A DNA stretch of 64,000 bases from a virus (IMGVR_UViG_3300009716_000731:64001-128000); one strand, 5' to 3'. Positions 12,507 through 53,518 are shown, counted from the stretch's first letter. Notes: generated from the letters alone by a model not told the origin. Numbers and translations are program-made.

Positions 12507-12617
12507 ATGCCACTACCGCATTATCCCAATCCACAGGGATTTAATTGGAGTCCTAAGTTCAAGAAAATACTTAGAATTAAGAAGATTAAGAGAATTATAG
12601 AGAAACTTGAAAAATAA
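12507..12617 (+). CDS. 36-aa peptide: tail-tube-like N-terminus plus RxxKIxxII tag
   Basis: MPLPHYPNPQGFNWSPKFKKILRIKKIKRIIEKLEK*, starts 1 nt after terS stop; not in ORF track. Confidence 0.6.
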   Translation: MPLPHYPNPQGFNWSPKFKKILRIKKIKRIIEKLEK

Positions 12618-13054
12618 TATTTATGTCAATTAATTTATAGTTTATCAAATTGTCACTTATTATATTTTCAGAGTCCATATCTATATTTATTCTGTTTGTT
12701 CTGGATTGATATCCTACTGTATTGGAAGGAGTTTCACAAAAAAATATCAAGTATAGTATATTCATTATTCATGAATGATATAAATGGTATAAAGTTATCT
12801 CTTATATCAAACCAGTCAAATACTTCAGTTCTGCCTGAAAATATACTTTTATTACCTTTAGTTATTTTTAACTTATAGATATTGCTAGTAATGTTATTTA
12901 TTGATTTAGCCTTTATCTTAGCTTCTGATGTTCCCCAGCTATTAACATCTATGTTAAAATCTTCGTCTATTAAGCTAGCGAGTAAATCACTAAATAATGA
13001 TTGAAGATCTTTTTCAGTTTCTGTATTTTCGTTAAAATTTCTTAAATAAATCAT
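12595..13054 (-). CDS. tagged protein (MIYLRNFNEN), apparently frameshifted in a T7 run near 12741
   Basis: As given stops at 12734; removing one T continues the frame to a stop at 12595; resembles 15067..15567 in layout. Confidence 0.55.
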
Positions 13055-13892
13055 AATGGAAGCTTTCAAATTTTCTAACAATATTTCTCCATTGAAGTTC
13101 AACTTTAGAATCAATGAATATGTTTGCTTTATTGAATGTTACTTGTTTTATAATAATTTCACACTCTTTATCTTTTATTGTGGTTCTTATTTGTTCTTTA
13201 AGTGCTTCTTCGGTATTATTTACTAAGAAGTGAAGAGTATCGTTTGCATTCATTAGCATTTTAACTGTATTAGCATCATCTTCATATAAAGTAACTCCGT
13301 CATATCTTTCTACTTCTTCATTAATAAACTTATTATCTTCTATCTTTAGACCAATTAAAAACTGAAGAAGTAATTTTGTTTTAGCATTTACAATCTCTGC
13401 TTTATCTTTATTATAGAATGTTTCAGAAATAAAGAAATATTTCTTTATAGAAAGACCAAGTTCTTTTATCTTATCTTCAAGTTTTTCAATTATTGGTTCA
13501 TAAGCTTTTTTACTATTCTTTGAACAAATAATAAAAATATCATCTTGTGTATTTTTTAAGTGTCTAATATTTTCAATATGTATTTGATAGTCACCTTTTT
13601 CTATTATTTCTGGATTCATAAACTCTTGCATAGAAAATGCTAAATCCGCAATATTAGCTTTTTTATTTTTACAAGATACCTTTAGATTATTATAAATTTC
13701 TTCACTAATCCAGTAATCGTTACCTGATAATTTAATCTTAATATTAAAGTTTTTATAAACACCTTTCTTAATTAAATTAAACTCATGTTTTGAGATTCTT
13801 AATAATGGCGTATTTGGATTAGTATTTTCTACAATCCAAACTTTACTATTTATTGTAATTAAAGTATTTAAGTCAAAAAAGTGAGCATTCAT
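13032..13892 (-). CDS. hypothetical protein, degenerate HAD-like fold; tag-like motif at C-terminus
   Basis: FFDLNTL, ICSK, LYEDD; ends IVRKFESF. Confidence 0.6.
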   Translation of the reverse strand: MNAHFFDLNTLITINSKVWIVENTNPNTPLLRISKHEFNLIKKGVYKNFNIKIKLSGNDYWISEEIYNNLKVSCKNKKANIADLAFSMQEFMNPEIIEKGDYQIHIENIRHLKNTQDDIFIICSKNSKKAYEPIIEKLEDKIKELGLSIKKYFFISETFYNKDKAEIVNAKTKLLLQFLIGLKIEDNKFINEEVERYDGVTLYEDDANTVKMLMNANDTLHFLVNNTEEALKEQIRTTIKDKECEIIIKQVTFNKANIFIDSKVELQWRNIVRKFESFHYDLFKKF

Positions 13893-13893
13893 T

Positions 13894-14110
13894 TTAATAC
13901 CATTTTTTTATTTTATATGAGAACATTACTGGAGAACCTTGATATGAGTCTTCATTTTCATATTTTTTATCTGTCCAAGTAACTTGTGGAGCATCTCTAA
14001 AGCATTTAGGACACATTTTGGGTGGTAATCCATCAACCATATTTTCTTCTTTATATACAAATGTTGCTTTACACCATACATTAGTACAAACTGATTTTAA
14101 TTCTTCCATA
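13894..14110 (-). CDS. small Zn-ribbon protein
   Basis: CTNVWC...CPKC; likely start MEELK. Confidence 0.65.
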
Positions 14111-14158
14111 TAGTATATATAAAAAAATAAAACCACTTAGTGTGGTTTTATTTTATTT

Positions 14159-14614
14159 TTATCTTACTAAATTTTTACTAAGTGCAAACTCATATAGTGT
14201 TGGTAAATTTAGATATTCTAAAAAGTATTTTCTTATATCATCTAAGTTTTTAGCTCTTTTTATAATATTTACTATTAAGAAACCAAATTCTTCTTGAAAA
14301 TCTAAGTAACAGTCACACCAAGGTGTGTTATAATGTTCTAAAGACTTCCATTCAGCATCACCACCTGTTAGCCAGTATAAGCTTTTTTCTGGTGTTATGC
14401 TATCAATATCAATTTCTCTTAACTCTATATTCCAAATTGGATTTGTTTTATCATATTTTCTTATTAAAATAGAAACCGCTTCTGCTAAATCTGTTGTTAA
14501 TTCCTTACCAATTTCAAAGAACCATTCGTTTCCCTCCCTACTAATTTTTATTTTATTATCATTATAAATTACTTTAGTTCCGATTCTTTCTAGTAAAGTT
14601 TTTTTCTTTCTCAT
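14159..14614 (-). CDS. hypothetical protein
   Basis: ORF track. Confidence 0.65.
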   Translation of the reverse strand: MRKKKTLLERIGTKVIYNDNKIKISREGNEWFFEIGKELTTDLAEAVSILIRKYDKTNPIWNIELREIDIDSITPEKSLYWLTGGDAEWKSLEHYNTPWCDCYLDFQEEFGFLIVNIIKRAKNLDDIRKYFLEYLNLPTLYEFALSKNLVR

Positions 14615-14634
14615 TGTTCTTTGATTATTTTTAT

Positions 14635-14925
14635 TTAGATTGGTTTATTCAAACCGCTCTTCCATTTCCCCTTGAAGGTTCCATTTTCCCAAATACCATT
14701 TTCCCAGTTTCCATAGAACCCACCGTTCTTAAATATACCGTAATGCCAATTACCATACTTAAATATTCCTTCGTGCCAAATTAATGTGTTATGTTTGATT
14801 TCTATAATAGCTGACTCTATTTCTGAGTCGATTAACCAGAATAGTTTATTATCTTTCAAAACTTTTAAGATTTCAGATTTAGTAGTTAAAGACTTATTGT
14901 TATACTTTAATTCTTTTATTCCCAT
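14635..14925 (-). CDS. small WxxG pentapeptide-repeat protein
   Basis: WHEGI FKYGN WHYGI FKNGG...WENGI WENGT. Confidence 0.7.
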   Translation of the reverse strand: MGIKELKYNNKSLTTKSEILKVLKDNKLFWLIDSEIESAIIEIKHNTLIWHEGIFKYGNWHYGIFKNGGFYGNWENGIWENGTFKGKWKSGLNKPI

Positions 14926-15066
14926 TTTGTAATTTATTTTACAGTTATATATATTTTTTAGCTTTGTATAATAATTTTAAGTATCTTAAAAAATTAAGTA
15001 AAAAAACGGATTTTTTATGTTAAATTTTTTCAAAAAAAATAAAAACTGAGTTTAATGCTCGGTTTT

Positions 15067-15567
15067 TTACATAATTTTTATTATAAAGTAAATGCTATCA
15101 ACTTTTTTACTATCTTTTAACTCTTCAAAATCTTCTAATTTTATTTTAGTTATTTCTTTATCTTCTGTAAATTTAATTAGATGCTCAACATCATCATAAG
15201 TTTTCTCAATTAACTGTATAATTAAACTTATAAAGTCTTTTACTTCGGATATTTTTATTGATTCACCATCTTGTCTTGTAATTTTAACTTTATAAATAGT
15301 TTTATATTTACCTCTATTGATATCCTCTTCATCTTTATAAACATCACTTTCATTAAAAATAACATTTATGTTATAAACATCATCATCTGATTTATATCTA
15401 ACATTATTTTTGATAAGTTTAGACATTTCTAAATCTGGGAAATCATCTGATAATTGAGGTTTTAACTCTAAAAGTAAATTAGCTAGATCTAGAACATCTT
15501 GAGTATCAAGATCTTGATCTTCCTTAATTTTACCGGAGAATTTCTCGAATGCTTTTATAATTTTCAT
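15067..15567 (-). CDS. tagged hypothetical protein (MKIIKAFEKF)
   Basis: ORF track; TTATATATA box upstream; terminator 15040-15067 downstream. Confidence 0.7.
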   Translation of the reverse strand: MKIIKAFEKFSGKIKEDQDLDTQDVLDLANLLLELKPQLSDDFPDLEMSKLIKNNVRYKSDDDVYNINVIFNESDVYKDEEDINRGKYKTIYKVKITRQDGESIKISEVKDFISLIIQLIEKTYDDVEHLIKFTEDKEITKIKLEDFEELKDSKKVDSIYFIIKIM

Positions 15568-15595
15568 ATAGTATATATAAAAAAAGCAGAGTTAA

Positions 15596-16141
15596 TTACT
15601 CTGCTAATTTATCTAAAAATTCTTTTTCTTCTTTTGTTAGTGAATTAATACCACTCTCATTTATTTTATCTAATATACTATCTAAATCTAAAGTATCTAA
15701 AGTTTGCGTCTCACTTTGTATTTTATTTTGAAAATTATTTTTCATATAAAAAGTGTCATTCTCTACTACTATATTATTTTCTATGAATCTATCTAGGCTT
15801 TCCAATCTTATTGTAGGAAATCCATTAACAAATCTTAAGTATTTAGCACAAGTTAAAAGATCTTTTTTAATCTTTTTTGGTTTTACTGGTTCCATCTTTG
15901 TAAGCATTTTTAGTTCTTTGGAGGTATAACCTTTTACTCCATTACCTTGTACAAGTATAATGTCTTTGTTTCCGTAAAATAACACTCTTCCGGTTTTAGT
16001 CTCTACCCATAAATAATCAGTAACATCTTTCATCCCATAAAGAATGCCAAAATCTAAACCATATTCAAGTGATATTGAAAATAGTTGTAAATCATTTACA
16101 CGAAAACTAATACATATAATGTCTTTTGCGTTATAAGCCAT
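15596..16141 (-). CDS. hypothetical protein with C-terminal DUF6576-like motif
   Basis: Ends LDSILDKINESGINSLTKEEKEFLD; near-consensus host-type promoter upstream (TTG-N20-TACTTTTA). Confidence 0.7.
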   Translation of the reverse strand: MAYNAKDIICISFRVNDLQLFSISLEYGLDFGILYGMKDVTDYLWVETKTGRVLFYGNKDIILVQGNGVKGYTSKELKMLTKMEPVKPKKIKKDLLTCAKYLRFVNGFPTIRLESLDRFIENNIVVENDTFYMKNNFQNKIQSETQTLDTLDLDSILDKINESGINSLTKEEKEFLDKLAE

Positions 16142-16234
16142 AATTCTATTTTTTGTAAAAGTAGTATATTTTTCTTAATTGTACAAAAATGATAATCATT
16201 ATTTTTATATATATACTAAAAATTTTTTTTAATA

Positions 16235-18799
16235 ATGAGATATTTAGATAAAAGATCTGACTTTCTTTCGCAAAGACAACATATAAAAACAGATAAAATT
16301 GAGTCTATTTATGAAGCACAATCAGGTGCTGGTCCTTTTGCTAATGATGTTGGTTGGAATGATTCCTTATTGGGTAGATTGATAAATCATATGATTAGAA
16401 AAGCTAGAATAGCAGCTAAAGTTCCAAGAATAAAAAATCTTATAGAGAGATTAAATGCTGCTTTCGAAGAGTTAGTTGGACAGTCTACCGTATTTAAGAC
16501 TAGTTCTGAAACACAAACAATAGCTATGCAAGCTCAAGTTGCATCTTTTTATTTTGAATTAATAAAAGCAGTTGAATCTGGTGAACCTGTATCTATATTA
16601 AAGAAACTAACAGATGAAGCAATAATAAAAACAAAAAGTTTGCCAGATTTTGATAAAAAGGATATTTTATTAGAGGAATTAAAGAAGTTTAGAGAATTTT
16701 TGGATCAATTTAAGGATGGTGAAGAATCTATAACTGGTGAAGATGATTCAAATGATGATGTTTCTCAGTATGGGATTATGGTTAAAAATCTACAAGCTTT
16801 AGCTCTTATTTTAGCAAACTATAAAAAAGTTAATTTAGGTGTTACGACACAATCGAAATTAATACCAGAATTAATTAAGGATAAAGAATATATGCTTGAT
16901 GATGATGTTGTTAAGTTAGTAGATCCTACAAATGTTGGAACACCAGAACAACCGAAAGTTACTGTTATTTATAGAGATAAGGTTACAAAAACATATAAGC
17001 CTAATTCTAAACCAGTTGTTATTCCTGCTGCTAAGTTAAAAGAATTAACAAAAGAAGCAGCAGCTCCTATCAGAAGTAATTCATATGGTAATGTCGGAGG
17101 TTCTAATATTGATAGAAATAATGTTACTGGTACAGAAGATCATTTAACACAAGCTTTTTCAAAGCTTAAAAAAGATATAGAGGTTTTAATATCAGCTAAA
17201 GAAAAAGGAATATCAGTTGATAATAATTTTATTAATGATATTTTAACTAATTCAAAGAATACAAAGTCTAAAGATATTATAAAGTCTTTATATACTGAGA
17301 TTAATAGATATTTAGTTGGTGATAAGAAAGCTACAATACAAGAAAGGGATGCTTTATATAAAGAAAGTATTGATATTCTTTCTGATAAAAATAAACTTGC
17401 TATTATTGCTGAGAAAATTGCAAGATTTTCTAAAAGAGCAATTCAGTTTGATGGTCAGAATATGTATGGTGGGTTAGGTGACTTTGGTGCTAATCTAAAG
17501 TCATTTGTAGATACTATTAAGCAAATAAAATCGTTCAAACTAAGTACTATTAGTGAGAGTGTTTTATCATATTCTTTGTTTTTAGAGCAAGTTACTACAT
17601 TAGAAGGAGATTCTAAAAAAATATTAAACTTCTTTAACGAAACTTGTGTTGAGGTTAGAAAATTTACACTAAGTAAGGAAGATTTAGAGAAAGCTAGAAA
17701 GGAATATGAAGAAAAAAGCAAAGATGAATCTGAAGTTATTATGTCTATGGACCCTATTATAGAAATAATGAATCTATTCATAAAATCTTATAAGCTTTAT
17801 ACAGTTAAAACAATTACTAAGAGAACAGAGAATGTTGATACTAATACTTTATCAGAATATACGCCTTTAGGTTCTGCTGATGATACTGGTAGAAAAGGTC
17901 CTTATAGAAATAATAAGCTATTTGATATGTGGGAAGAAGCTGTAAATAATATTAGAAAGAATAGAAAATATCAAGTTTTCTTTACAGATCAAGCTAGTCT
18001 TAGATTACCGTCCGTTCCGGATCCAAATCCTTATAACTCAGAAGACTGGAAAGTTAGACCAAAAGCAGGTAGACAATTTAGTAAATTTATTAATGATGTT
18101 ATGGATGGTGATAAATTATATAAATCATCTGATAGTAGAGGTTCTGTTGCTAGATTTTTAGATGAATATTTTGGTGATGGTTCTACTACAAAAGAACAAC
18201 AAGGTAGAATAGATAGTACTGGATTACAAGATAATGCTCAGATAGAAGAGCAAATTAATAATAACGCCATTAATCTTAAGATGATTAAAAGTGAGAATAC
18301 TGATGGTAACTATGTTAATACTTTTTTTACCATTACTTTTGATAAGTTAGATAAAGATGGAAAAGAAACTGGAAAAGGTCAATATTCTTTCTATGTTGGA
18401 GATAACGAATTTAATTTAATGTTTAATACTGGGATTAGTTTATTTAGTGATATGCTTACCTCTATTGGTCCTAAGAGAAGTATTGATAAAGGAGAAATGG
18501 ATAATTTGTCTAATAGTAGAGGTGATATGTACTTTACTCGTATTAAAGATATTAGAAATATTCTAGCAGGAAACACTCTTGATTTAGGCTATGTTCAGAT
18601 CGCAAAAGAGTCTAGTCTTAGAAATCAAAAAATAAAATTAACTGGATTATATAGATTAGTCTATGAGAAAGAACCAGGTAAGCTTTATAGATTAGAAGGT
18701 GATGATTTAACAAAATGGAATAATATTTTAAGAAGTAAAAATATACCTAGTATTAAATCTAAAGTAGATATAAAAAATCCTGAAATAAAGAAAGTATAA
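16235..18799 (+). CDS. large tagged hypothetical protein, probable virion or internal head protein
   Basis: 854 aa; MRYLDKRSDFL...IYEA; internal tag-like SYSLFLE; upstream of sheath. Confidence 0.7.
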   Translation: MRYLDKRSDFLSQRQHIKTDKIESIYEAQSGAGPFANDVGWNDSLLGRLINHMIRKARIAAKVPRIKNLIERLNAAFEELVGQSTVFKTSSETQTIAMQAQVASFYFELIKAVESGEPVSILKKLTDEAIIKTKSLPDFDKKDILLEELKKFREFLDQFKDGEESITGEDDSNDDVSQYGIMVKNLQALALILANYKKVNLGVTTQSKLIPELIKDKEYMLDDDVVKLVDPTNVGTPEQPKVTVIYRDKVTKTYKPNSKPVVIPAAKLKELTKEAAAPIRSNSYGNVGGSNIDRNNVTGTEDHLTQAFSKLKKDIEVLISAKEKGISVDNNFINDILTNSKNTKSKDIIKSLYTEINRYLVGDKKATIQERDALYKESIDILSDKNKLAIIAEKIARFSKRAIQFDGQNMYGGLGDFGANLKSFVDTIKQIKSFKLSTISESVLSYSLFLEQVTTLEGDSKKILNFFNETCVEVRKFTLSKEDLEKARKEYEEKSKDESEVIMSMDPIIEIMNLFIKSYKLYTVKTITKRTENVDTNTLSEYTPLGSADDTGRKGPYRNNKLFDMWEEAVNNIRKNRKYQVFFTDQASLRLPSVPDPNPYNSEDWKVRPKAGRQFSKFINDVMDGDKLYKSSDSRGSVARFLDEYFGDGSTTKEQQGRIDSTGLQDNAQIEEQINNNAINLKMIKSENTDGNYVNTFFTITFDKLDKDGKETGKGQYSFYVGDNEFNLMFNTGISLFSDMLTSIGPKRSIDKGEMDNLSNSRGDMYFTRIKDIRNILAGNTLDLGYVQIAKESSLRNQKIKLTGLYRLVYEKEPGKLYRLEGDDLTKWNNILRSKNIPSIKSKVDIKNPEIKKV

Positions 18800-19359: not shown

Positions 19360-19387
19360 AAATAGAAAAAATATCATTTTTTTCTTT

Positions 19388-19396
19388 TAATATATA
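19388..19396 (+). promoter_or_regulatory. putative late promoter TAATATATA (sheath gene)
   Basis: Same 9-mer recurs upstream of many structural and tagged genes; analogous to T4 TATAAATA. Confidence 0.65.
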
Positions 19397-19423
19397 CATT
19401 AAAATAAAAATAAAAAATTAAAT

Positions 19424-23583: not shown

Positions 23584-25263
23584 ATGAATTTAGATATATT
23601 TAGAAATCCAGATCCTTCTGGTAGAATGTCAAAAGAATCTTATGTAATAAATAATTATAAAGATGAATATGATTATATAATTTCTATAATTAAAGAAGAA
23701 ATGCCATTTAAGGAGAAGGTTTTTTTAGTATTAAATGGTATGTCAAATTCGCCAATTTGTAAAAATCCTAATTGTGATAATAAAGTAAAATTCAAAAATT
23801 CAACAATTGGTTATTTAAGATATTGTTCTAATAAATGTATATCATCAGATCCAGATATAAAAAAAATAAAAGAACAAAAATCATTGGAAAAATGGGGAAC
23901 AAAAACTCCTGCGGAATCTAATCAAATAAAAGAAAAGATTATAAATACAAATAATAAAAAATATGGTGGAAATTCTGCTATGTGTTCTGAGAATGTGAAA
24001 AGTAAATCTAAATTAACACTAATTAGTAATTATGGTGTTGATAATCCTGCAAAATCTAAAGAACTTTTAGCAAAAAGAATTGAGAAGTTTAAGATTAGTA
24101 ATTATAAGCAATCATATAAAGAAACTTCACTTAAAAAATATGGTGTTGAGCATCCTTGGATGAATAAAGATATACATAAAAAAACCATAGAGGTATTTTA
24201 TGAGAGTTATAAAGAACGAATAAATGATAAAATTGATAAATCAGAATATGAATTTATATCATTTGGTAAAGATTTTTCTACTTTATTAAAATTTATGTGT
24301 AAAAAATGTAATAATGAATTTGATATAGTTACTTATCAGTTTTATTATAGAATAAGAGGTGGTTTACCTATATGTACTAAATGTTACCCTATTTCTGATA
24401 ATTCATCAATAACTCAAATAGAATTATCTAATTTTATAAGAGAAAATTATGATGGTTGTATAATACAAAATGATAGAAATAAAATAAAACCTTATGAAAT
24501 AGATGTTTATTTACCTGATTTGAAAATTGGTTTTGAGTTTAATGGTGTTTTTTGGCATTCTGAAAAATTTAAGGATGATAATTATCATTGTAAAAAATAT
24601 AAATTAGCAATAGATAATGATATAAAACTATATACAATTTGGGAAGATGATTGGAATATTAAAAATAAGATATGCAAATCTTTTATATTAAATAAACTAT
24701 CTAAATCTATAAAAATTGGAGCTAGAAAAACAAAAATAAAAGAAGTAAAATACTTACAATCTAAAAAATTTTTAGAAGAAAATCACTTACAAGGTGATGT
24801 TAAATCTTCTGTTAGAATAGGTCTTTTTCATAATAATGAATTAGTAAGTTTAATGACTTTTTCTAAGCTTAGATTACCATTGAATAGAAAATTATCAAAA
24901 AATGAAAGTGTTTATGAGTTAACAAGATTTTGTAATAAAATAAACCATACAATAACTGGTGGGTCTTCTAAATTATTAAAATATTTTATATTAAAATATA
25001 ATCCGGTTGAAATTCAAACTTACTCTGATAATTTAATTTCAAATGGTGATTTATATCAAAAATTAGGATTTTCATATAAGCACGAATCAAACCCAGGATA
25101 TTGGTATCTTATAAATGGTGTTAGAGAATATAGATTTAATTGGAGGAAACAAAAATTAGTATCTATGGGTTATGATGTTAATAAATCGGAGAGAGAAATA
25201 ATGTTAGAATTGGGTTTTTATAGAATATATAATGCTGGTAATAAAAAATGGATATGGAAATAG
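23584..25263 (+). mobile_element. free-standing homing endonuclease (KYG repeats, Zn ribbons, PD-(D/E)XK; T4 Hef-like architecture)
   Basis: KKYGG/NYGV/KYGV repeats, CKKC..CTKC, EIDVYLPDLKIGFEFNGVFWH. Confidence 0.75.
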
Positions 25264-27100: not shown

Positions 27101-27101
27101 A

Positions 27102-27136
27102 ATAATAAAAGCCACTTTTTAAGTGGCTTTTATTAT
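27102..27136. terminator. bidirectional intrinsic terminator
   Basis: AATAATAAAAGCCACTT-ttt-AAGTGGCTTTTATTATT between convergent genes. Confidence 0.8.
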
Positions 27137-27756
27137 TAATATCCAGAAACAAGTGGTGGATTAATTGTAAATTGATTATCAATGTATTCATCAATGAAGT
27201 AGTCATAAACAAAATCAGCTTGTAGTGATTCTATAATATTGTTTTGAGACCAATCCATAGTATAACCTTGTAACTTAGTAATTTGACAGTTTTGGAAAGT
27301 AACTCTTCTTAAAACAACACCTTTTTTATCGTGTTGATTAACAATAATAGTACCGATAATATCACTTTTATAGTGAAGAGCACCATTTTGAGAGTTGAAT
27401 ACTAAGTCATACCATGCTTTCATAGTATTCCAGTTCTCCATAGAACCTTGTTGATTAACATTCACTTGGAAAGGAATTGATAATACACCAGAGGTTTTAG
27501 TTGGAGTAGTAACAAACTCTCTTGTAGAGTATTTGAATCTTTGTTGTTTAGTTACAACGTCAAACTCTGTTAAGTTAAGATCAATCTTAGTTGAGTTTTG
27601 TAGCAATAAAATTGGATCTCTACCTTGTGCTTGTAAGATAACAGGTAAAATAAATGTTATCTCAAAAAGGTTAGTATATACAACTTCATCAGGTAATGTA
27701 CCTGGTCCTCCAGGTGAACCTACGCCTTGTAATTGAGTAAAATGAGGTAAGGGCAT
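27136..27756 (-). CDS. tail tube protein (gp19-like)
   Basis: NLFEITF, WYDLVFNSQNG..YK, DKKGVVLRRVTFQNC, F.YDYF; late boxes upstream. Confidence 0.8.
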   Translation of the reverse strand: MPLPHFTQLQGVGSPGGPGTLPDEVVYTNLFEITFILPVILQAQGRDPILLLQNSTKIDLNLTEFDVVTKQQRFKYSTREFVTTPTKTSGVLSIPFQVNVNQQGSMENWNTMKAWYDLVFNSQNGALHYKSDIIGTIIVNQHDKKGVVLRRVTFQNCQITKLQGYTMDWSQNNIIESLQADFVYDYFIDEYIDNQFTINPPLVSGY

Positions 27757-44040: not shown

Positions 44041-45363
44041 ATGAGTAAATTAACAACATTAAATGGTATTAATGACCAAGATTTATTGAATCAAATTTTT
44101 AATGATGAGATCACGGTCTTTGAGGACATTCAAGGTAGTAAAATATGGGTAAATTGGAATGGAAAAGAATTTACAATAAAAACGAAATCGCTATCTAATG
44201 ATCCTATTAATTTAATAGACTTAGCTATGCAGAACTATTATAATCCAGCATTAAATTATTTTAATAATTTAGATTATAGAGTTAAAAGTCTTTTAAATAG
44301 AAAATGGTGGTTCTGCTTTGAATATTTTCCGGATGAGCAACCAGCAAACATAAGATACAACCAAGTCCCTAAAAATAATTTAGTTCTTACTGCAATTAAT
44401 AAGTCTGGTAAGTATGAATTTAATTTAGATGAGTTAGTAGAATACGCTAGATTATTTGATGTAGATCATCTACCTGTGGTTTATCAAGGTAAGCTAACAG
44501 ATAAGATGATTGAAGCTATAAAGTATTTCTTAAATACAAGTGAGGCAGACTTAGAATATATTTTTGGTGATAAGTCATTTGCATTCTTCTTTTACAAAAT
44601 ATTAAATCCATTAGTTGATAGTTCATTTTTAATGGATGAAGAATTTCAAAAAAATATTGAAAAGCTTATCATAAGATGTAAGTCAAATGATTTGTCATTT
44701 GAAGTTCTTAATCCTTTATATAATAGGCTTAGTACTGAAAATGATACTGAGTTTGTTGAGATTTATACTTTAATCTTGGTTAATTTCTTAAATTTCTGTC
44801 AGTCTATTAACTTAGAAGATATTAAATTAAAAGGAGAAACTAAAGATGAGATTTATATCTATCTAATTTGTAAGTTATTTAATATTTATATAGGAGAAGT
44901 TAAGTCAGACCTTTTAGACTTTGATTTTATAGTTCCTGATTTTTTTGATAAAGAAAAGTTCAAAATAAATACTGAACTAATTAAAAATAAGCTAACAAAA
45001 GAGTATTTATCTGAGTCCGATAAATTAGAGTATATATTTAAGGTTATTTTAGGATCATTTAACAAAAAAAGAAAAAAAGCTATTGGTATATTTACCGATA
45101 ATACAGTTAAGTTATTTAATAATTTTGTTGATGATATTCAAAATCACATTGATAAATACTTAAACAGAATGCATGAAATTGAGCTTACAAGAGCTGGTCT
45201 TGTTGACTTCTCAGATTTCTTAGATCTTAAATATGATATGGATGCTGATGGTGAGGTTTATCCTGATGTTTACTCTGAGTTTGAAAAAGGAGTCAAGCAA
45301 GATAATAAGAAAAAGAAAGCAGGAGGAAAATTTCCAATACAACAACAAAAACCTACATTATAG
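44041..45363 (+). CDS. RNA-ligase-fold (Rnl2-like) protein lacking the catalytic lysine
   Basis: ITVFEDIQGSKI at motif I position (normally EKxDG); FCFEY; LPVVYQG. Confidence 0.5.
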   Translation: MSKLTTLNGINDQDLLNQIFNDEITVFEDIQGSKIWVNWNGKEFTIKTKSLSNDPINLIDLAMQNYYNPALNYFNNLDYRVKSLLNRKWWFCFEYFPDEQPANIRYNQVPKNNLVLTAINKSGKYEFNLDELVEYARLFDVDHLPVVYQGKLTDKMIEAIKYFLNTSEADLEYIFGDKSFAFFFYKILNPLVDSSFLMDEEFQKNIEKLIIRCKSNDLSFEVLNPLYNRLSTENDTEFVEIYTLILVNFLNFCQSINLEDIKLKGETKDEIYIYLICKLFNIYIGEVKSDLLDFDFIVPDFFDKEKFKINTELIKNKLTKEYLSESDKLEYIFKVILGSFNKKRKKAIGIFTDNTVKLFNNFVDDIQNHIDKYLNRMHEIELTRAGLVDFSDFLDLKYDMDADGEVYPDVYSEFEKGVKQDNKKKKAGGKFPIQQQKPTL

Positions 45364-45394
45364 TAGGTTTTTATTTACAAAATAATTTTATTAT

Positions 45395-45598
45395 ATGAAT
45401 ATAAATACTATTGATTTAAATGTCAAATCAATTGATATTAAAGCAGGTGTGAGAAAATTAAGAACTAAATGGACTACTGAAATGGTTAATGATTTAAGTT
45501 TTCATAGTGGATTTGGTGATATTGAACGACAATTAATCGTATCTATACGCAAGGAAAAAAGAATAAAAACTATCAATAATTTACTAAACAATATCTAA
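45395..45598 (+). CDS. 67-aa major-capsid-fragment-like protein with C-terminal tag
   Basis: IDLNVKSIDIKAGVRKLRTKWTTEMVNDL resembles gp23-family A(K/E)xRxL(K/R)AxW(T/S)xExxQDL; ends KRIKTINNLL. Confidence 0.6.
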   Translation: MNINTIDLNVKSIDIKAGVRKLRTKWTTEMVNDLSFHSGFGDIERQLIVSIRKEKRIKTINNLLNNI

Positions 45599-45616
45599 GT
45601 TTTCAGTATAAAAGTT

Positions 45617-46834
45617 ATGTATATAGAAACAAAAACTATTAACCAATATAGAATAAATAAAAAGATAAAACAAAAGTCTTTTTCTTTACATTTTTTACCT
45701 GAATGCTTAAATGATCTTGTAAAAAGAAAACACATTGAGTTCTCAAATCAAAAATTAAAAGTAGATTATCTAGTAGATATAGTTCATAATTTACTACTTA
45801 AATATTATTTCAAAAAAGAAAATAAATTTGCACTAAATGCAACAATACTTAAAAGTAAGTATGGTTATCTTTACAACTACTATATTTCCTTTCTTATTGA
45901 GAATAATATTATTCGATTGCATACAAATTATAAAAAAGGTAAAACATCTAGAATATATTCATTAAATGAAAAGATTTTTACACAAAGAATAAATCGATAT
46001 AGAAACTATGATAAAGTCTTACTAAAAAAGTATAAAGGTAAGTTTATTGAAATGACATCTGAGGATTCAGATATATCTATAATTGAACCTTCTGTTCGAG
46101 AAAAACTAGTAAATGATTTATTTAATGTTAAGATTGACTACGATAGAGCTATATTCTTTTTAGACTTACTTAAAAATGAGGATATTGATATTTACAATAG
46201 AAATATTTACTCTGTTGAGTGTATAAATGATAGTCATATATTTTATCACTTTGACTCATATGGTAGAATGCATACAAATTATACTATATTAAAATCATTT
46301 ATTCGTAAAAACTGTTTATTAATTGATGGTTTAGAAACTTGTGAGTTAGATATACCAAATAGTCAGCCATTATTTTTGGTAAAGTTAATAAATATTAGTA
46401 ATTTTGGTAATGTAGATCAAGATGAGTTTGAGTTATTTAAGAAGCTAACTATTGATGGTAATTTTTATCAGTATTTTATGTCAATGATTGGTGAGACAAA
46501 TAAAAAGTTAGTGAAAGAAATGACTTATAAAGTTCTCTTTGGTAGAAATATTGCAAGCTCGAAGGCAGATAAGCATTTCAAGTCTTTATTTCCTACGATA
46601 TATGACTTTATAAAAACGTATAAAAAAGAAAATGGAGATTATCGTGTTCTTGCGTATGATTTACAAAGAGCAGAGTCATCATTAGTATTTAATAAGATAA
46701 TAAGTAAAGTGATGAATTACTATCCTGAAATAAAAATGATAACAATACACGATAGTATTGTTGTTCCTAAAATATATAGAGAGGAAGTAAATATCATTTT
46801 TGAGAATGAATTAAAAAAAGAATTTAATATATAG
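45617..46834 (+). CDS. compact family-A-polymerase-like protein with N-terminal wHTH-like region
   Basis: YGRMH, motif A ELDIPNSQP, motif B-like KxxxYxxLFG, LQRAES, motif C IHDS. Confidence 0.6.
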   Translation: MYIETKTINQYRINKKIKQKSFSLHFLPECLNDLVKRKHIEFSNQKLKVDYLVDIVHNLLLKYYFKKENKFALNATILKSKYGYLYNYYISFLIENNIIRLHTNYKKGKTSRIYSLNEKIFTQRINRYRNYDKVLLKKYKGKFIEMTSEDSDISIIEPSVREKLVNDLFNVKIDYDRAIFFLDLLKNEDIDIYNRNIYSVECINDSHIFYHFDSYGRMHTNYTILKSFIRKNCLLIDGLETCELDIPNSQPLFLVKLINISNFGNVDQDEFELFKKLTIDGNFYQYFMSMIGETNKKLVKEMTYKVLFGRNIASSKADKHFKSLFPTIYDFIKTYKKENGDYRVLAYDLQRAESSLVFNKIISKVMNYYPEIKMITIHDSIVVPKIYREEVNIIFENELKKEFNI

Positions 46835-46837
46835 ATT

Positions 46838-46987
46838 ATGAAACAATTTTGTTTAACAACTAAGTCAAAGGAAGTTATCATAAAAACTTCTGCTAGTGAT
46901 TTTCAAGAAGCACTTGATTATTTCTCAAAAGTTAAAAAACTTCCTAAAGAGGAAATATTAAAAATATTTTACATCTTAGAAAAATAA
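46838..46987 (+). CDS. small hypothetical protein (49 aa)
   Basis: MKQFCLTTKSK...; read manually; TAATATATA box upstream. Confidence 0.6.
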   Translation: MKQFCLTTKSKEVIIKTSASDFQEALDYFSKVKKLPKEEILKIFYILEK

Positions 46988-46997
46988 TATATACTTT

Positions 46998-47537: not shown

Positions 47538-47562
47538 AAAAAGTCGCATTTGCGACTTTTTT
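47536..47562. terminator. bidirectional intrinsic terminator
   Basis: AAAAAAGTCGC-attt-GCGACTTTTTT. Confidence 0.8.
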
Positions 47563-48289
47563 ATTTTATATAAAACCATTGTATTTTTTTATCCCAGTTA
47601 TTGGTTTCCTTAAAGAAATACTGATCATTATCTGTTGATTTAATAACATATACACCTGTTGATGATGTTTTAAGTGTTTCAGTTCTTAACACAATTACTT
47701 TATCTTTATCAATTTTATTATCTGTAATTATTTTAATACCACTTAGAAAGTTATTATTTTCAATAGAAAGATAGAATCTTTCGTATTGAGTAATTGGATT
47801 CATCAAAACTACATTTGCTGGTCCTACTCGACCATTCATAGCAATTAAATTACCACCCATCAATACTTTTGACATAATCATTCTTTCGAGTTGATTTACA
47901 TCAGTTGAGCTTGAAACTGTAACATCTGTTAAAGTTTGTTTACTATTTACTGTGTGATTTATATAAAAATCTAAAACCTCGTTATATAAGTCTTCATACG
48001 AAATGAATTTTTTACCACTTATAGAACTTTCAAATATCTTCATAGATATAGTAGGAAAGTCATCTTGATCTTTTATAAAAACTCGATCATTTAATTTCTC
48101 TTCTTTTTCTTCTCCTAATAAAACATCAATAGTAATTTCTCTATTCATAGCTATGTTTTCAGCTTTATTTTCTTCAACTGCGTCTAAAAAATGAAACTTA
48201 GCAACATTACTACCAATTGCTTTCTCATCAAAGCAACATATATCTTTTAATTTCTCTTTGAATTCTTCCTCTCTATTAAAATGTATCAT
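47561..48289 (-). CDS. degenerate major-capsid-like (gp23 A-domain-like) protein
   Basis: SKVLMGGNLIAMNGRVGPANVVLMN...LSGIKIITDNKI..DKVIVLR resembles the gp23 IAxxxxRGxxNFII...VYxD region; internal NREITIDVLL tag. Confidence 0.55.
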   Translation of the reverse strand: MIHFNREEEFKEKLKDICCFDEKAIGSNVAKFHFLDAVEENKAENIAMNREITIDVLLGEEKEEKLNDRVFIKDQDDFPTISMKIFESSISGKKFISYEDLYNEVLDFYINHTVNSKQTLTDVTVSSSTDVNQLERMIMSKVLMGGNLIAMNGRVGPANVVLMNPITQYERFYLSIENNNFLSGIKIITDNKIDKDKVIVLRTETLKTSSTGVYVIKSTDNDQYFFKETNNWDKKIQWFYIK

Positions 48290-49034: not shown

Positions 49035-49068
49035 TCTAAATTATTATTTTTTATTTATATTATATATA

Positions 49069-49215
49069 TTAAACTTGTTGAGGATTTTTCCAATCTTTAT
49101 GAGTTGTGATTGCTAACATTTGTTTATTTGTTAGTTCGTTAGGATTCCATCCCATCTTTTTGCAGTATTCAATTAAAAAGTTTTCTTTCTTAATTAATAA
49201 ATCTTTTTTGGTCAT
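49069..49215 (-). CDS. small hypothetical protein (48 aa)
   Basis: MTKKDLLIKKENFLIEYCKKMGWNP...; read manually; TTATATATA box upstream. Confidence 0.6.
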   Translation of the reverse strand: MTKKDLLIKKENFLIEYCKKMGWNPNELTNKQMLAITTHKDWKNPQQV

Positions 49216-49255
49216 GTGTTTTTATTTTTATATATAATTTTTGTATATTTGCCGT

Positions 49256-49837
49256 ATGGTATTCAAAGTAAGAGGTATATTAGAATTTAGTCCGCAGGAT
49301 AAAACTAAGAAGCACGAACGTCAAGCTTCTTGGAAGAGAGTTGCTATGATTAAAACTGACTGTGAAATAGATAGATACTATGCATGGTTCTTGAAAAAAA
49401 GATTTAACCTTGAATTAAATAAAAACTTAAGAGGAACTCACGTTACCTTTGTCAATGATAGAATGGATTTTGAAGTTTTTGAGCAAGCTTCTAAAATCTT
49501 TAATGGTAAGGAAATTGATTTTTATGTTGAAACTGAACCGAGATCTAATGGTGAGCACTGGTGGTTAAGAGTTTATTGCCAAGATGCAGAAATAATAAGA
49601 GAAAGTATGGGCTTGAGTAGAGAACCATTCTATGGAATGCACTTAACTTTAGGTCACGCTGTTGTTAAGTATCCAGAAGCGGTTGAAGTTAGTGAAAACT
49701 CTGCTATAAAAGTTAAGAAAGATTATTTAGAACACTCTGAATATATCTTAGAATGTTGTAAAAGACACGAGTTGATCTCAAATGAACCAAGAATGCCATT
49801 TGAACAGCAAGAAATTATAGAATTCAAAGAGGACTAA
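49256..49837 (+). CDS. 2H-phosphoesterase-superfamily protein
   Basis: Two HxT motifs (GTHVTF, MHLTLG) about 65 aa apart; ATG at 49256 after TATATTTG. Confidence 0.6.
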   Translation: MVFKVRGILEFSPQDKTKKHERQASWKRVAMIKTDCEIDRYYAWFLKKRFNLELNKNLRGTHVTFVNDRMDFEVFEQASKIFNGKEIDFYVETEPRSNGEHWWLRVYCQDAEIIRESMGLSREPFYGMHLTLGHAVVKYPEAVEVSENSAIKVKKDYLEHSEYILECCKRHELISNEPRMPFEQQEIIEFKED

Positions 49838-49901
49838 TAGTCCTCTTTTTTATTTCAACAAACTTGTTTTATAATCATATAAATAAAAATAAAAATTTAT
49901 A

Positions 49902-50732
49902 ATGATTAAAGCTGATTTATATTATAAAGAAAATCTAAGAAAAATATTGGAAGAGGGAACGATGGACAGAAATCCTCGTCCTAAATATAAAGATGGTCAA
50001 GATGCAAATAGCATATTTATAACTCAAGTTTTTGAGGAATATGATTTATCAAAAGGAGAATTTCCTATTACTACACTAAGAAATACTGCAATTAAAACAG
50101 GAATCAATGAGATTTTATGGATATATCAAGATCAAGACTCTAATTTAGAAACAGCACATAAAAGAAATATAATGTGGTGGGATGATTGGAATATTGGTAA
50201 TGGAACAATTGGTCAAAGATATGGTGCGACTATAAGAAAGTGGAATTTACTTGACAACCTTCTAGTGAGTTTAAGAGAAGATCCTTTTTCAAGAAGACAT
50301 ATTATTAATATGTTACAAGAGTCAGATCTGAAGCAAACAAATGGTTTATATCCTTGTGCTTACGAAACTATTTGGTCAGTAAGAGAAGTTGATGGTAAGA
50401 TGTTTTTAGATATGACTCTAAATCAAAGAAGTAATGATTATATTATGGCTGGGTATATCAATAAAATACAATATGTAGCTTTACAAATGATGGTCGCATC
50501 TGACTTAGGATATAAGGTTGGTAAATTCTGTCATTATGTTCAGAATCTACATATTTATGATAGACATATTGAAGCCGCTAAAGAGTTATTAGAAAGAGAA
50601 CCTTTAGAGAAACAACCAAAGTTAGAATTAAAGTCTGGTTTAAGTTTTTATGACGTAACTGTTAATGATTTTAAGATTTCTAATATTAGTGGTATACAAA
50701 AAATAAAATCAGAATTAGAAATAGCGATATGA
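49902..50732 (+). CDS. thyA: thymidylate synthase
   Basis: FPITTLR, SRR, catalytic YPC, QRSND, NLHIYDRH. Confidence 0.95.
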   Translation: MIKADLYYKENLRKILEEGTMDRNPRPKYKDGQDANSIFITQVFEEYDLSKGEFPITTLRNTAIKTGINEILWIYQDQDSNLETAHKRNIMWWDDWNIGNGTIGQRYGATIRKWNLLDNLLVSLREDPFSRRHIINMLQESDLKQTNGLYPCAYETIWSVREVDGKMFLDMTLNQRSNDYIMAGYINKIQYVALQMMVASDLGYKVGKFCHYVQNLHIYDRHIEAAKELLEREPLEKQPKLELKSGLSFYDVTVNDFKISNISGIQKIKSELEIAI

Positions 50733-50878
50733 GAGAATTGACTTTACCTGAGAGAATTGAATTATTTTGTGAGAAGTATAAAAAACATATTTCCTATGGT
50801 GATGACTTAGGGCATGATGATTTAGATAATCATGATATTCCAAGATTTGTTGAAACAAATGAGGAAAAATATATATAA
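50729..50878 (+). CDS. small hypothetical protein (49 aa)
   Basis: ATGA overlap with thyA stop; read manually. Confidence 0.5.
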   Translation: MRELTLPERIELFCEKYKKHISYGDDLGHDDLDNHDIPRFVETNEEKYI

Positions 50879-50898
50879 ATAAAAAATAATTTTATAGA

Positions 50899-51396
50899 AT
50901 GAGTAATATAACATCTATGGATTATATGGAAAGTATCGTTGAGCAAATAAAAAACATAGATACTGATAATTTACCTAATATAATTCCTGATTCAGAAAAA
51001 ACAAAATCTTCTGTTGTGGAAGAACAAAAAATTTATTTTTGGATTAGACTTTACCTAAAAGATGAATGTGATAATATTGAAATAGGTGATGATATTTGTA
51101 TTACTTATACTCCTTCTAGTGAGAAGCTTAAGACAAAATTTGTATGTTATGGTAAAGCAAATATAAATAAAGATTATGATCATGAAATCATAAGTTATAA
51201 TGCTGCGGATGATAAAAAAGTTCTTTGTTTGATGGTTGATGAAAATGAAGTTAACTATTCTGATGAAATACCTTTTATTAGAACTTTGTTTAAAACTGGT
51301 AGGCATTATGAATATCAATTAGTGAAAAGATCAGAACTTTTATTTATAATTGAAAGAAATGATTTTATTTTAGATTATTTCGATTGCACATTTTAA
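50899..51396 (+). CDS. hypothetical protein
   Basis: ORF track. Confidence 0.65.
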   Translation: MSNITSMDYMESIVEQIKNIDTDNLPNIIPDSEKTKSSVVEEQKIYFWIRLYLKDECDNIEIGDDICITYTPSSEKLKTKFVCYGKANINKDYDHEIISYNAADDKKVLCLMVDENEVNYSDEIPFIRTLFKTGRHYEYQLVKRSELLFIIERNDFILDYFDCTF

Positions 51397-51397
51397 T

Positions 51398-51589
51398 ATG
51401 ATAGATATATTTTTCATAGAATTTTTTGTAAAAAAGAAATACAACAAAAGCTTAGAGGAATATTTTTGCGTAAATAGACCAACAGCTTCTAAATGGCGTA
51501 ATATTAAATTTCCTAAAAGTAGATTATATGAGTTTTTACATAGAGAGGGAACACTTGATGTAATTGAATTAGTTAAAAGAATATACTAG
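51398..51589 (+). CDS. small HTH-like protein
   Basis: LEEYFCVNRPTASKWR. Confidence 0.5.
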   Translation: MIDIFFIEFFVKKKYNKSLEEYFCVNRPTASKWRNIKFPKSRLYEFLHREGTLDVIELVKRIY

Positions 51590-51630
51590 AGACAAGAAAC
51601 ATTTTTATATATACAAATAAAAATGTTTCT

Positions 51631-52218
51631 ATGAAAGTATGTAATGTATGTAATTTAGAACTAGATTTTAGTAAATTCTATAAGTCAACAAATAAGGATG
51701 GATTAAAGAATGAATGTAAGAGTTGCTACAATAATAAAAGATATGAATATAATAAAAATTATAAATTAAGTAATAAAGAAAGAATAGCAACTGTAAAGAA
51801 AGAATATTATTTAACTAATAAAGATTATATGATGAAAAAGCATACAGAATACTTAAATTATAGATATAAAAATGACTTATTGTTTAGATTACTCATATTA
51901 AGTAGAAGTTCTATTAAAAATGCTTTTTTAAGTAAAGGTATTAAAAAAAGATCAAAAACTATTGAGTTGATAGGTTGTTCGCTATTTGAATTAAGAAATC
52001 ACTTAGAATCAAAGTTTGAAAATTGGATGAACTGGAACAACCAAGGTTTGTATAATGGTGATTTTAATTATGGATGGGATATAGATCATATAATTCCTTT
52101 ATCATCTGCAAAAACAGAAGAAGAACTTATAAAGTTAACACATTATACAAATTTACAACCTTTATGCAGTAAAATAAACAGAGATATAAAAAAAGACACA
52201 TGGACACAGATTCGATAG
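51631..52218 (+). mobile_element. free-standing HNH-type endonuclease
   Basis: CNVC..CKSC, IGCS, WDIDHIIP, HYTNLQPL. Confidence 0.8.
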
Positions 52219-52715
52219 AATATTTACTGTTAAATTACTTTAATGAAGTAATATGGGTTAAAGAAAATCCAGCTTTTTTTGATATTATTGAAAAGAGTAG
52301 GGTTAATGGTGAGCTAATTATAAATAATAAACAAGAAATATATCACTTAAAAGAGTTGTTGGTCTCTTCAATTGAAGAGCTTAACAACTCTTTATATTTA
52401 CACCTATTAGATTGTAATAGCTATGATATAAGTTATTATACAAAGGGTATTAGAAAAATATTTGGTAATAATGATAGATTGATTTATAATGAATTATCAA
52501 AATTAGATCAAAAAAATACTTGGATCATAACTTCACAAAAGATATTAGAAAGATTTTTCTTTACTCGTAAGACAGTATGTTTTAATGTTTATGTTTGTGA
52601 TTTATTTGATGATAAGATAGTTATTGGAAGTAAAGACTCAAAACTTATATTGAATGAAAATTTGAAAGAATTTTATTTAGATTTATCTAACATAAAGATA
52701 TTAAACTTAAAATAA
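52200..52715 (+). CDS. hypothetical protein, possibly a highly degenerate capsid A-domain-like paralog
   Basis: NTWIITSQKI...FNVYVCDLFDDKIVIG weakly parallels 47561..48289. Confidence 0.4.
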   Translation: MDTDSIEYLLLNYFNEVIWVKENPAFFDIIEKSRVNGELIINNKQEIYHLKELLVSSIEELNNSLYLHLLDCNSYDISYYTKGIRKIFGNNDRLIYNELSKLDQKNTWIITSQKILERFFFTRKTVCFNVYVCDLFDDKIVIGSKDSKLILNENLKEFYLDLSNIKILNLK

Positions 52716-52738
52716 AAAAGTCGCTCAAAGCGACTTTT
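52714..52738. terminator. bidirectional intrinsic terminator
   Basis: AAAAAAGTCGCT-caa-AGCGACTTTT. Confidence 0.8.
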
Positions 52739-53067
52739 TATTCTATATATGTTATTTTCATATTTAATGATTTAGCTAATTCTATTTCGGCTAATACACC
52801 AGTAGATTTATCCCATCCATCTAATTTATAGACGAACATTTCATCACATTTGTATAAGAATGTTTCGCAAAAATTTTTCCAAAACTCCCAGTCTCCTGGC
52901 ATTTCTTTATAGTTTAATAGAGTGTGTCCATAAACTATTGGTGACATAACTACCATTCCGTTTGCAACTAATTCTGCAACTTTTTTACAAGTTAAATCAT
53001 ATCTATTTATTACAACACTTGGATCTTTATCCGAGTAAAGTGAAGCAAAGTAAAACATATTATTCAA
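52738..53067 (-). CDS. DUF1937 / nucleoside 2-deoxyribosyltransferase-like protein
   Basis: YFASLYS, SPIVYGH, GWDKSTGVLAEIELA. Confidence 0.8.
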   Translation of the reverse strand: MNNMFYFASLYSDKDPSVVINRYDLTCKKVAELVANGMVVMSPIVYGHTLLNYKEMPGDWEFWKNFCETFLYKCDEMFVYKLDGWDKSTGVLAEIELAKSLNMKITYIE

Positions 53068-53518
53068 TTCCTAATTCTCTAAGTTTAACATTTCTTTTAT
53101 GAGCATCATCAACAATAAGTTGAACCATTTGTCTATCTACCCATTTATTTTGCATAAATTGAATTACACCACTTATTCTTTGTTGATCTGATGATATTTT
53201 TCTATCATCGGTGGTGAATCCAGTGGCTTTAACTTTAAGCTGTTTTTCGGAGACTTCTACAACTTCAAGTTCATATGTTCCGCTAAATGAATATGACTCT
53301 TTAGTTCCTTGACCATAAATCAATGAATAGTTTGGATAAATTACTTTATCACCTGGTTCAATAGCAATTAAATCATTTTTAATAGACTCTGCTTTTGTTT
53401 TAGCTTTACTAAGTTCATTATTTTGGTTTATCAAATCTAAATTATTAGTAAAAAGTTTATAGTTAAGTACGATGCTTACTAGTAATGCAACCGATAACGA
53501 AATTATTGCTGTAATCAT
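53060..53518 (-). CDS. membrane-anchored protein with C-terminal RxxKLxxL tag
   Basis: N-terminal TM; ends KRNVKLRELGIE. Confidence 0.65.
   Translation of the reverse strand: MITAIISLSVALLVSIVLNYKLFTNNLDLINQNNELSKAKTKAESIKNDLIAIEPGDKVIYPNYSLIYGQGTKESYSFSGTYELEVVEVSEKQLKVKATGFTTDDRKISSDQQRISGVIQFMQNKWVDRQMVQLIVDDAHKRNVKLRELGIE

Follow-up and report, generated by a model that had tools for sequence, protein, structure and literature searches.

A C-terminal tag on accessory proteins and on virion-protein slices in a clade of huge phages

The internal proteins IPI-III and Alt of phage T4 carry the capsid-targeting sequence (CTS), a short portable terminal peptide on unrelated proteins with one destination. 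It stands at the N-terminus, and the prohead protease cuts it off. The cargo-loading peptides of encapsulins and the encapsulation peptides of microcompartments are short terminal amphipathic helices found on unrelated cargo with variable linkers, and in the encapsulins the partner is an HK97-fold shell. In the PIP-box and the clamp-binding tails of T4 and RB69, a C-terminal h-x-x-h-h pattern with basic flanks brings many clients to one hub. Here we describe a peptide motif, termed the tag, which is likewise short, portable and attached to unrelated proteins of a T4-type phage. It was found in a stretch of 64,000 nucleotides of viral DNA (IMGVR_UViG_3300009716_000731:64001-128000), referred to below as the window, and it stands at the C-terminus of roughly 4-7% of the proteins of the clade to which this virus belongs. 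Some of the tagged proteins are built from slices of capsid, tube and scaffold proteins.

The tag differs from each of these systems. It is C-terminal (sometimes internal) and has another sequence than the CTS, and neither of the features that define the CTS, the N-terminal position and the prohead protease site, is found in it. The genes that carry it are without the promoter motif seen before structural genes, and a separate N-terminal tag of the same phages looks more CTS-like. With the encapsulation peptides it shares the character of a short terminal helix on unrelated proteins: about 55 tagged open reading frames (ORFs), with a median length of 94 residues and unrelated bodies, are listed for the relative LR745206, and in the window protein P0004 the helix has been modelled. 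However, the consensus is another one, and among the carriers are slices of the shell protein itself as well as a probable membrane protein. The PIP-box has no counterpart of the invariant Arg residue of the tag.

It is also important to compare the slices with the triggers of known defences. What Lit (in the Gol peptide of T4 gp23), CapRel, Avs and DSR2 recognise in capsid and tube proteins is a short conserved stretch or a fold. The list of Avs targets in PMC13581612 comprises capsid, tube and further core proteins. These triggers are parts of full-length virion proteins, whereas the slices described here are separate, conserved and labelled genes. In the full-text literature on phage-encoded capsid mimics, decoys or fragments, and in that on Mahaphage, our searches turned up neither the tag nor the mini-genes. 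The explanation that we favour, tentative and somewhat short of probable, is that the tag is a docking label on accessory proteins and that the slice-bearing members mimic conserved surfaces of capsid, tube and scaffold proteins.

A C-terminal tag restricted to one clade

The window is the part from base 64001 to base 128000 of an IMG/VR virus record of 151 kb, which is 26% complete according to CheckV and has a G+C content of about 27%. The nearest named relatives are the uncultured phages LR745206 (634 kb) and LR756502 (642 kb), which have 70-71% nucleotide identity to it and keep the gene order. The 151-kb fragment belongs to a huge phage close to these 634- and 642-kb Mahaphage genomes, and the tag-bearing clade consists of huge phages that probably infect Bacteroidota.

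Five motif-bearing ORFs of the window, P0001 to P0005, had been pointed out in an earlier note made on this DNA. All five peptides are present where that note had placed them, and all five ORFs end in TAA. On the plus strand, RIKKIKRII is found in P0001 (12507-12617), RIKTINNLL in P0002 (45395-45598) and RRDYIIDKL at the end of P0003 (5071-5373). On the minus strand, RNVKLRELG is found in P0004 (53060-53518), and REITIDVLL is internal in P0005 (47561-48289). The note had regarded this motif as a second tag of the virus; in fact the motif belongs with the tag R-[DE]-x-K-[IL]-x-x-[IL] of the adjacent window and is not an additional one. The core of the tag is R-[D/N/E]-x-K-I-x-x-[I/L]-[L/F], often with Tyr or an aliphatic residue just before it.

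The canonical C-terminal form is retained by orthologues or paralogues of P0002, P0003 and P0004 in LR745206 and LR756502. The Arg residue of the tag is the only invariant column in the 35 members of the P0002 family (R56 in alignment A5, where I60 is conserved to at least 90%), and it is invariant also in the 45 members of the P0005 family. A pattern derived from the orthologues has 20 matches in the 1007 ORFs of LR745206, 14 of them no more than 15 residues from the C-terminus, where about 8% would be expected. The statistic of being near a stop is biased in short frames, as noise in LR756501 behaves likewise, and for this reason frames of at least 100 residues and called ORFs were used. In such long frames the matches of a motif model are stop-adjacent in 21 of 24 cases for LR745206 and in 6 of 6 for the virus itself, a count that is partly circular since the model was trained on C-terminal instances. 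A stricter core pattern finds 40 C-terminal tails among the 1007 ORFs of LR745206, 5 in the 151 kb of the virus itself and none in LR756501, a 735-kb relative of similar size and composition. The scan of a tag profile over the genome and its relatives, which the earlier note had proposed as a check, gave enrichment at the C-termini of long frames and restriction to the clade. The tag is a real, C-terminal and clade-restricted peptide feature.

That a loose pattern arose by chance in a proteome rich in K, I, L and N is hardly credible. Such a reading can draw on the way the motif was first defined, since the pattern of the earlier note was fitted post hoc to its five instances. It has 5 matches in the 76 ORFs of the window and 1.1 in shuffled proteins, an excess that proves little alone, because the pattern was written from these very instances and shuffling abolishes helix periodicity. 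Four of the five instances score poorly with an independent motif model: P0001 reaches 1.6 bits and P0002 0.7 bits, and P0004 and P0005 have no match at the motif, compared with 11.9 bits for P0003. The short-frame noise matches of LR756501 also accumulate near stops. Chance is nevertheless contradicted by the C-terminal positions, the enrichment in long frames, the 40 tails versus 0 in a pair of genomes comparable in size and composition, and conservation at the family level, including the invariant Arg of the P0002 family. The motifs of P0001, P0002, P0004 and P0005 are diverged copies, and it is through their families that they count as members.

Three other origins were considered and rejected. 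A DNA-level element, such as an in-frame promoter or terminator, is ruled out by the synonymous variation of the Arg, Ile, Leu and Lys codons at the tag residues (AGA/AGG/CGT/CGA, ATA/ATT/ATC and TTA/CTT/CTG among them). The genome has a CUA tRNA, but an artefact of TAG read-through is ruled out because the carriers stop at TAA, as most tagged ORFs do. The end of the spine helix of the capsid protein (ISKQIVAKIF) was examined as a source of which the tag would be a copy; an hhalign alignment spans this site, but the tag models miss it (no match; rank 419).

The C-terminal location also invites comparison with two kinds of known C-terminal signals. The PIP consensus is Q-x-x-h-x-x-a-a, and the positions [D/N]-x-K-I-x-x-I-[L/F] of the tag map onto it. 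A tail of this kind would dock small proteins on a sliding clamp, as is the case for T4 gp43, gp33 and gp55 and for the clients of PCNA. The fit to the consensus, the strictly C-terminal location with basic flanks and a clamp loader encoded in the window are in keeping with this explanation, which we consider improbable all the same. The C-terminal piece of the family B DNA polymerase (PolB) of LR745206 ends in RRLSVVMDIFGGFK, which is T4-like and differs from the tag; the motif model does not recognise it (score -0.2, rank 524 of 877 tails). In the 151-kb record no sliding clamp gene was identified and no gp45-family match was found, and the neighbour of the clamp loader gene encodes an EndoVII/HNH nuclease. 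It can be mentioned that the polymerase of LR745206 is divided into two genes about 100 kb apart, at 130568-131992 on the minus strand and 232803-234344 on the plus strand.

C-terminal signals for ClpX and FtsH are an established precedent for degrons, and the tag, a basic and hydrophobic C-terminal motif on many small proteins that look short-lived, might in the same way single out accessory proteins for proteolysis at a set time, by an enzyme of the phage or of the host. This is distinctly improbable, since the distance of the tag from the C-terminus varies from 0 to 15 residues and conserved internal copies exist.

Capsid, tube and scaffold slices among the tagged proteins

The clearest slice in the window is P0002, a protein of 67 residues (45395-45598, plus strand). 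Of 73 related IMG/VR loci, 52 have a syntenic ORF of its family behind the RNA-ligase-like gene, the tag Arg is invariant, and dN/dS is 0.10-0.38 (pairs with at least 70% identity). P0002 is therefore a real mini-gene under purifying selection, and it consists of a gp23-type slice followed by a degenerate tag. Residues 3-40 match positions 131-168 of the Pfam profile Gp23 (PF07068; E 4.6e-5, 23.4 bits) and positions 182-219 of the major head protein family phrog_138; this segment comprises the E-loop strand and the start of the spine helix. When the profile of the 35-member family is aligned by hhalign with the family of the phage's own capsid protein, residues 6-67 of P0002 are colinear with capsid residues 306-373. 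That capsid protein, of the gp23 type and 564 residues long, is encoded outside the window at 139091-140785 of the genome. With its 67 residues aligned to capsid 306-373 only, P0002 does not have the complete HK97 fold with N-arm, E-loop, P and A domains, and it is a slice of a Gp23-type capsid protein and not a member of the family.

The tag region of P0002 is SIRKEKRIKTINNLL (45545-45589, plus strand). The family consensus is R-K-x-S-I-N-K-I-F, and the tails in two relatives read IRKESINKIF or FRKDKIRKIL. A search of P0002 against longer proteins gave nothing. A complex prediction for the capsid protein (alignment A6) with the P0002 family (A5) scored 0.00, which is evidence neither way. Between the RNA-ligase-like gene and P0002 there is a terminator-like hairpin at 45347-45373 (AAAACCTAC...GTAGGTTTT), 20-30 nucleotides before the P0002 start.

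Similar slices were searched for by comparing the tagged ORFs of the virus itself and of LR745206 with all proteins of at least 150 residues. Three tagged ORFs of LR745206 have matches to virion proteins. An ORF of 75 residues matches capsid residues 494-542, the C-terminal strands (E 2e-5). In a second ORF, of 131 residues (422809-423204, tag RRENIINDIL), residues 48-120 match tube residues 114-187 (E 6.5e-4). The third, of 83 residues, is built of YSEYLAENLDKNI repeats of a scaffold fusion (E 3e-39). Among small ORFs such capsid, tube or scaffold matches are found for 3 of 59 tagged and 1 of 582 untagged proteins (Fisher P 0.003). When 16 further tagged proteins were compared with Pfam and PHROGs, only one 67-residue ORF (L041:158-361) and one weak unnamed family (E 0.035) were obtained; the former matches only phrog_138, at positions 216-256, a segment adjoining that of P0002. 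In addition, a tagged protein of 243 residues has, by eye, some likeness to the C-terminal half of the capsid protein. Judged by these sequence comparisons, the combination of a virion slice and a tag is a real class, which makes up a minority of the tagged proteins and draws on the best conserved of the virion proteins.

The sole untagged match is an ORF of 84 residues in LR745206 (93266-93520, locus L023). It carries the N-terminal tag MRYLKPYKKFIEN followed by a slice from the N-terminus of the capsid protein (GMGAVSSAQPGG...GSGD, E 4.5e-6). Capsid slices therefore occur with either tag.

Tube and scaffold proteins are also encoded by the phage of the window. The tail tube gene lies in the window at 27136-27756 on the minus strand (phrog_45, tail tube, E 2e-14) and is the 'parent' of both the tagged tube-like ORF of LR745206 and the N-terminus of P0001. 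The scaffold fusion, of 729 residues, is outside the window at C1:136827-139016, directly before the capsid gene. By eye it has a prohead-protease-like N-terminal domain. It also contains an acidic stretch and a tandem array in which YSEYLAENLDKNI is repeated about 15 times, and it is presumably the scaffold.

P0001 (12507-12617, plus strand) has 36 residues, MPLPHYPNPQG and then the degenerate tag LRIKKIKRII. Its likeness to the tube protein is limited to 7 of 11 N-terminal residues. In a BLAST comparison of the five carriers with all proteins of the window, this was the only match that stood out from noise, and among called ORFs a start with MPLP is found only in P0001, in the phage's own tube protein and in one tagged ORF of 35 residues in LR745206. 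P0001 has no syntenic counterpart in LR745206, and we regard it as doubtful, or else as a young ORF. The stretch of about 500 nucleotides after the gene at 11810-12505 (with 12618-13031), which contains P0001 and two unconvincing ORFs with TTG starts, is missing from LR745206, in which the genes on its two sides directly adjoin each other. Elsewhere among the relatives, the gene at 11810-12505 has a terminator hairpin behind it.

P0005 (47561-48289, minus strand) is of a different kind. Its AlphaFold model has a pLDDT of 88 and a pTM of 0.80, and Foldseek matches this model over its whole length to HK97-fold capsid proteins (probability 1.0, E 6e-8), including phage capsid proteins, HK97 gp5, T4 gp23 and gp24, and encapsulin. 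The hhalign comparison with the phage's own capsid family gives a probability of 98% and E 1.3e-13, with residues 129-217 of P0005 on residues 407-513 of the capsid protein, a part of the A domain; BLASTP between the two proteins gives E 4e-5. P0005 remains below every Pfam cut-off, and neither it nor the P0002 family has a match among PDB sequences. The family comprises at least 108 representative clusters of 230-260 residues. The model indicates that the 242 residues form a whole small HK97-fold paralogue and not a fragment, and that the tag-like motif is one of the helices of the fold. This helix (residues 42-57, 48116-48157) follows the first hairpin and is confidently folded; its consensus is K..NR.L.ID..L.EK.E, with R50 as the invariant Arg.

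Like T4 gp24, P0005 is a second, smaller HK97-fold protein besides a gp23-type capsid protein. A search of BFVD returned capsid proteins and the head vertex protein of Vibrio phage nt-1 (TM 0.58/0.49), so that a head vertex protein is among the closer matches by TM-score. P0005 is possibly a gp24-like head vertex protein. It differs from gp24 in that its gene is not beside the capsid gene, no Pfam cut-off is reached, its length is 242 residues and it contains the tag-like helix. A further ORF at 52200-52715 on the plus strand was considered as a faint paralogue of the capsid A domain; this was unsupported, with an hhalign probability below 1% when the single sequence was compared with the families of P0005 and of the capsid protein.

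Two carriers remain. P0003 (5071-5373, plus strand), of 100 residues, has the best tag of the window, SIRRDYIIDKL, in its last 11 residues (5338-5370). The orthologues in LR745206 and LR756502 end in SLRRDLIINGLI and SIKRNLIIKKII, and the body of P0003 has no match to known families in profile searches of the Pfam and PHROGs type. P0004 (53060-53518, minus strand), of 152 residues, consists of an N-terminal hydrophobic helix, which is a probable membrane anchor, a small SH3-like beta domain and the C-terminal tag helix KRNVKLRELGIE (53069-53098). The AlphaFold model has a pLDDT of 84, and the tag is the terminal helix 138-148, with a lower confidence (pLDDT about 70). The fold matches are SH3-like and weak, and a search of the ESM Atlas gave only unnamed viral clusters. 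In the family alignment A4 the C-terminal residues K141, R142, K145, L146, L149 and G150 are invariant or nearly so. The tails in the family are KRNVKLRELGIE, KRDAKLRKLGIE, RRNDKLSKILGD, SRNDKIDKILA or KRNDKIDQILNNG, and those of the paralogues are KRNDKIDQIL and SRNDKIDKIL.

The earlier note had seen pieces of structural proteins in three of the five carriers, each piece joined to a shared portable helix. For P0002 this holds, as a gp23 segment of borderline significance, both in the profile comparison of its non-tag part and in the design of fragment plus helix, which extends to its family and to the three ORFs of LR745206 with capsid, tube and scaffold matches. It does not hold for P0005, the non-tag part of which is capsid-like as a whole fold, nor for P0001, in which the likeness is weak, spans 11 residues and is unconserved; P0003 gave nothing in this comparison. 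Conservation of the ORFs was likewise found for the P0002 family and not for P0001.

These carriers allow another explanation to be weighed, in which the motif is an intrinsic capping or oligomerising helix without a common reader, spread by recombination, and the slices are by-products of recombination kept for unrelated reasons. The motif of P0005 is indeed integral to its fold, the surroundings of P0001 are an insertion variable among relatives, tagged genes cluster and have paralogues, and AT-rich genomes favour helices rich in K, I, N and L. However, the Arg is invariant in families that are otherwise 30-40% identical, and the same pattern is found on unrelated folds and on 35-residue ORFs that have no body to cap. 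The tag is absent from the equally AT-rich LR756501, and P0002 is under purifying selection. An intrinsic helix is thus quite unlikely in our estimate.

Gene context and the N-terminal tag

The carriers are located outside the structural gene clusters, as the earlier note had stated, among genes of nucleic-acid metabolism. Their neighbours are genes for a topoisomerase, a nucleotidyltransferase, an RNA-ligase-like protein and thymidylate synthase. Most carriers are small accessory proteins inside operons. A motif, AATATATA, is present 30-40 nucleotides before the tube, scaffold and large structural genes. It is found upstream of 1 of 29 genes with the C-terminal tag, compared with 43% of those with the N-terminal tag (36/83) and 16% of the others (145/895); the enrichment for the N-terminal tag has P 5e-8.

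The N-terminal tag, M-[KR]-[YH]-[LI]-K-x-[FY]-x-E..., occurs in 83 of the 1007 ORFs of LR745206, in 21 of 206 in the virus's own record and in 7 of 1084 in LR756501. Its sites are spread over the entire genome of the virus and over LR745206 (loci L019-L050); those in the window include sites within 220-61849. We take this sequence to resemble the T4 capsid-targeting sequence. The N-terminal and the C-terminal tag never stand on one ORF.

The promoter motif bears on the explanation that the C-terminal tag is itself an address for the virion. The tag would then load small proteins into the prohead or virion by way of the capsid or scaffold protein, and the slice carriers would be minor parts of the assembly. 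In favour of this, many small proteins of unrelated kinds end in this short amphipathic helix. The capsid protein of the phage is of the T4 type, its prohead protease is fused to a scaffold with about 15 repeats, one tagged ORF consists of scaffold repeats, and an HK97-fold paralogue bears the motif. The mutual exclusion of the two tags, with 83 of 1007 ORFs carrying the N-terminal one, also agrees with such an address. On the other side, the motif of the structural genes is nearly absent before the C-tagged genes and enriched before the N-tagged ones, and the carriers stand among genes of the early or middle type. The probable membrane anchor of P0004 does not fit, and there is no obvious place for tube slices in a head. 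We regard a virion address as possible but unlikely.

The surrounding genes of the window form a T4-like mix. They encode topoisomerase II, a nucleotidyltransferase, the large terminase, a tail sheath of 1354 residues and a homing endonuclease, together with the tail tube, SbcD, thymidylate synthase, EndoVII/HNH nucleases and the clamp loader. Next to P0002, a protein of 405 residues (45617-46834, plus strand) has 58-63% identity in relatives, no Pfam match and a marginal PHROG match (E 0.005); motifs like those of family A polymerases (D.SNSQP, K..FG, HDS) can be recognised by eye. The thymidylate synthase (276 residues) at 49902-50878 is followed by an overlapping ORF of 49 residues, for which the homologue in LR745206, a longer protein, gives a match (E 4e-7), and judging from the sequence the gene may be frameshifted or split in the window. 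A homing or HNH endonuclease of 559 residues (23584-25263) closely follows the sheath gene, and the tube gene is reached about 2 kb later. Two EndoVII/HNH-like ORFs are found at 51631-52218 and 59500-60207, one of them adjoining the clamp loader; mobile nucleases are frequent here.

A docking label and its possible partners

In the docking-label explanation, the five ORFs would carry versions of one portable label, a short helix normally no more than 15 residues from the stop. The label would be a short linear docking motif for one common partner, a hub protein. Two steps are inferred, the reading of the motif by a single partner and mimicry as the way in which the slices act. A single common reader is favoured because a pattern of 9-10 residues with an invariant Arg is kept on unrelated bodies, in proteins that otherwise evolve fast, and on bodiless ORFs of 35 residues. 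A slice would compete for the natural binder of the surface that it resembles, while the label would tether it to the hub. This binder could be unassembled capsid or tube protein, either the phage's own or that of another phage in the same cell; it could also be an assembly factor, or a sensor of the host.

Several results weigh against this proposal. The step from a conserved motif to one reader is itself only inferred. By its score with the independently built model, P0003 is the sole clear member of the motif in the window, and the motif of P0005, a well-folded internal helix, is unlike a free docking peptide. P0002 misses the Pfam cut-off for Gp23 by one bit (23.4 vs 24.4), and the hhalign probability of its alignment with the capsid family is just 37%. 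There is no BLAST likeness of P0002 to the phage's own capsid protein, which makes it no close copy of what it would mimic. The ORF of P0001 is intact only in the near-identical locus L161; in L162 it is cut to MPLPK*, and it is absent from 78 other related loci. The bulk of the tagged bodies have no likeness to any larger protein. Finally, 78% of the tagged genes are internal to operons, and the depletion of the promoter motif before them is for this reason weak evidence on timing.

The earlier note had gone further and proposed a bait joined to a handle. In a more specific form of this idea, the labelled mini-proteins would be a library of decoys or competitive inhibitors that display parts of the best conserved phage proteins, directed against host sensors of the core phage proteome or against the assembly of co-infecting T4-type phages, and the shared helix would recruit the baits to an effector hub encoded by the phage. 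We think that this may be entertained but is on the whole unlikely. If true, it would be a modular system of counter-defence or interference without a described counterpart.

A label on about one protein in 20 points to a hub that is central to how the largest known phages live. Its reader, once identified, would supply dozens of orphan genes with a function in a single step, and the label could perhaps be put to use for targeting as well. For conserved mini-genes that consist of pieces of capsid, tube and scaffold proteins, our searches brought up no paper with such a gene design. If these slices are mimics, they would represent a new viral means to control assembly, competitors or the sensors of core virion proteins.

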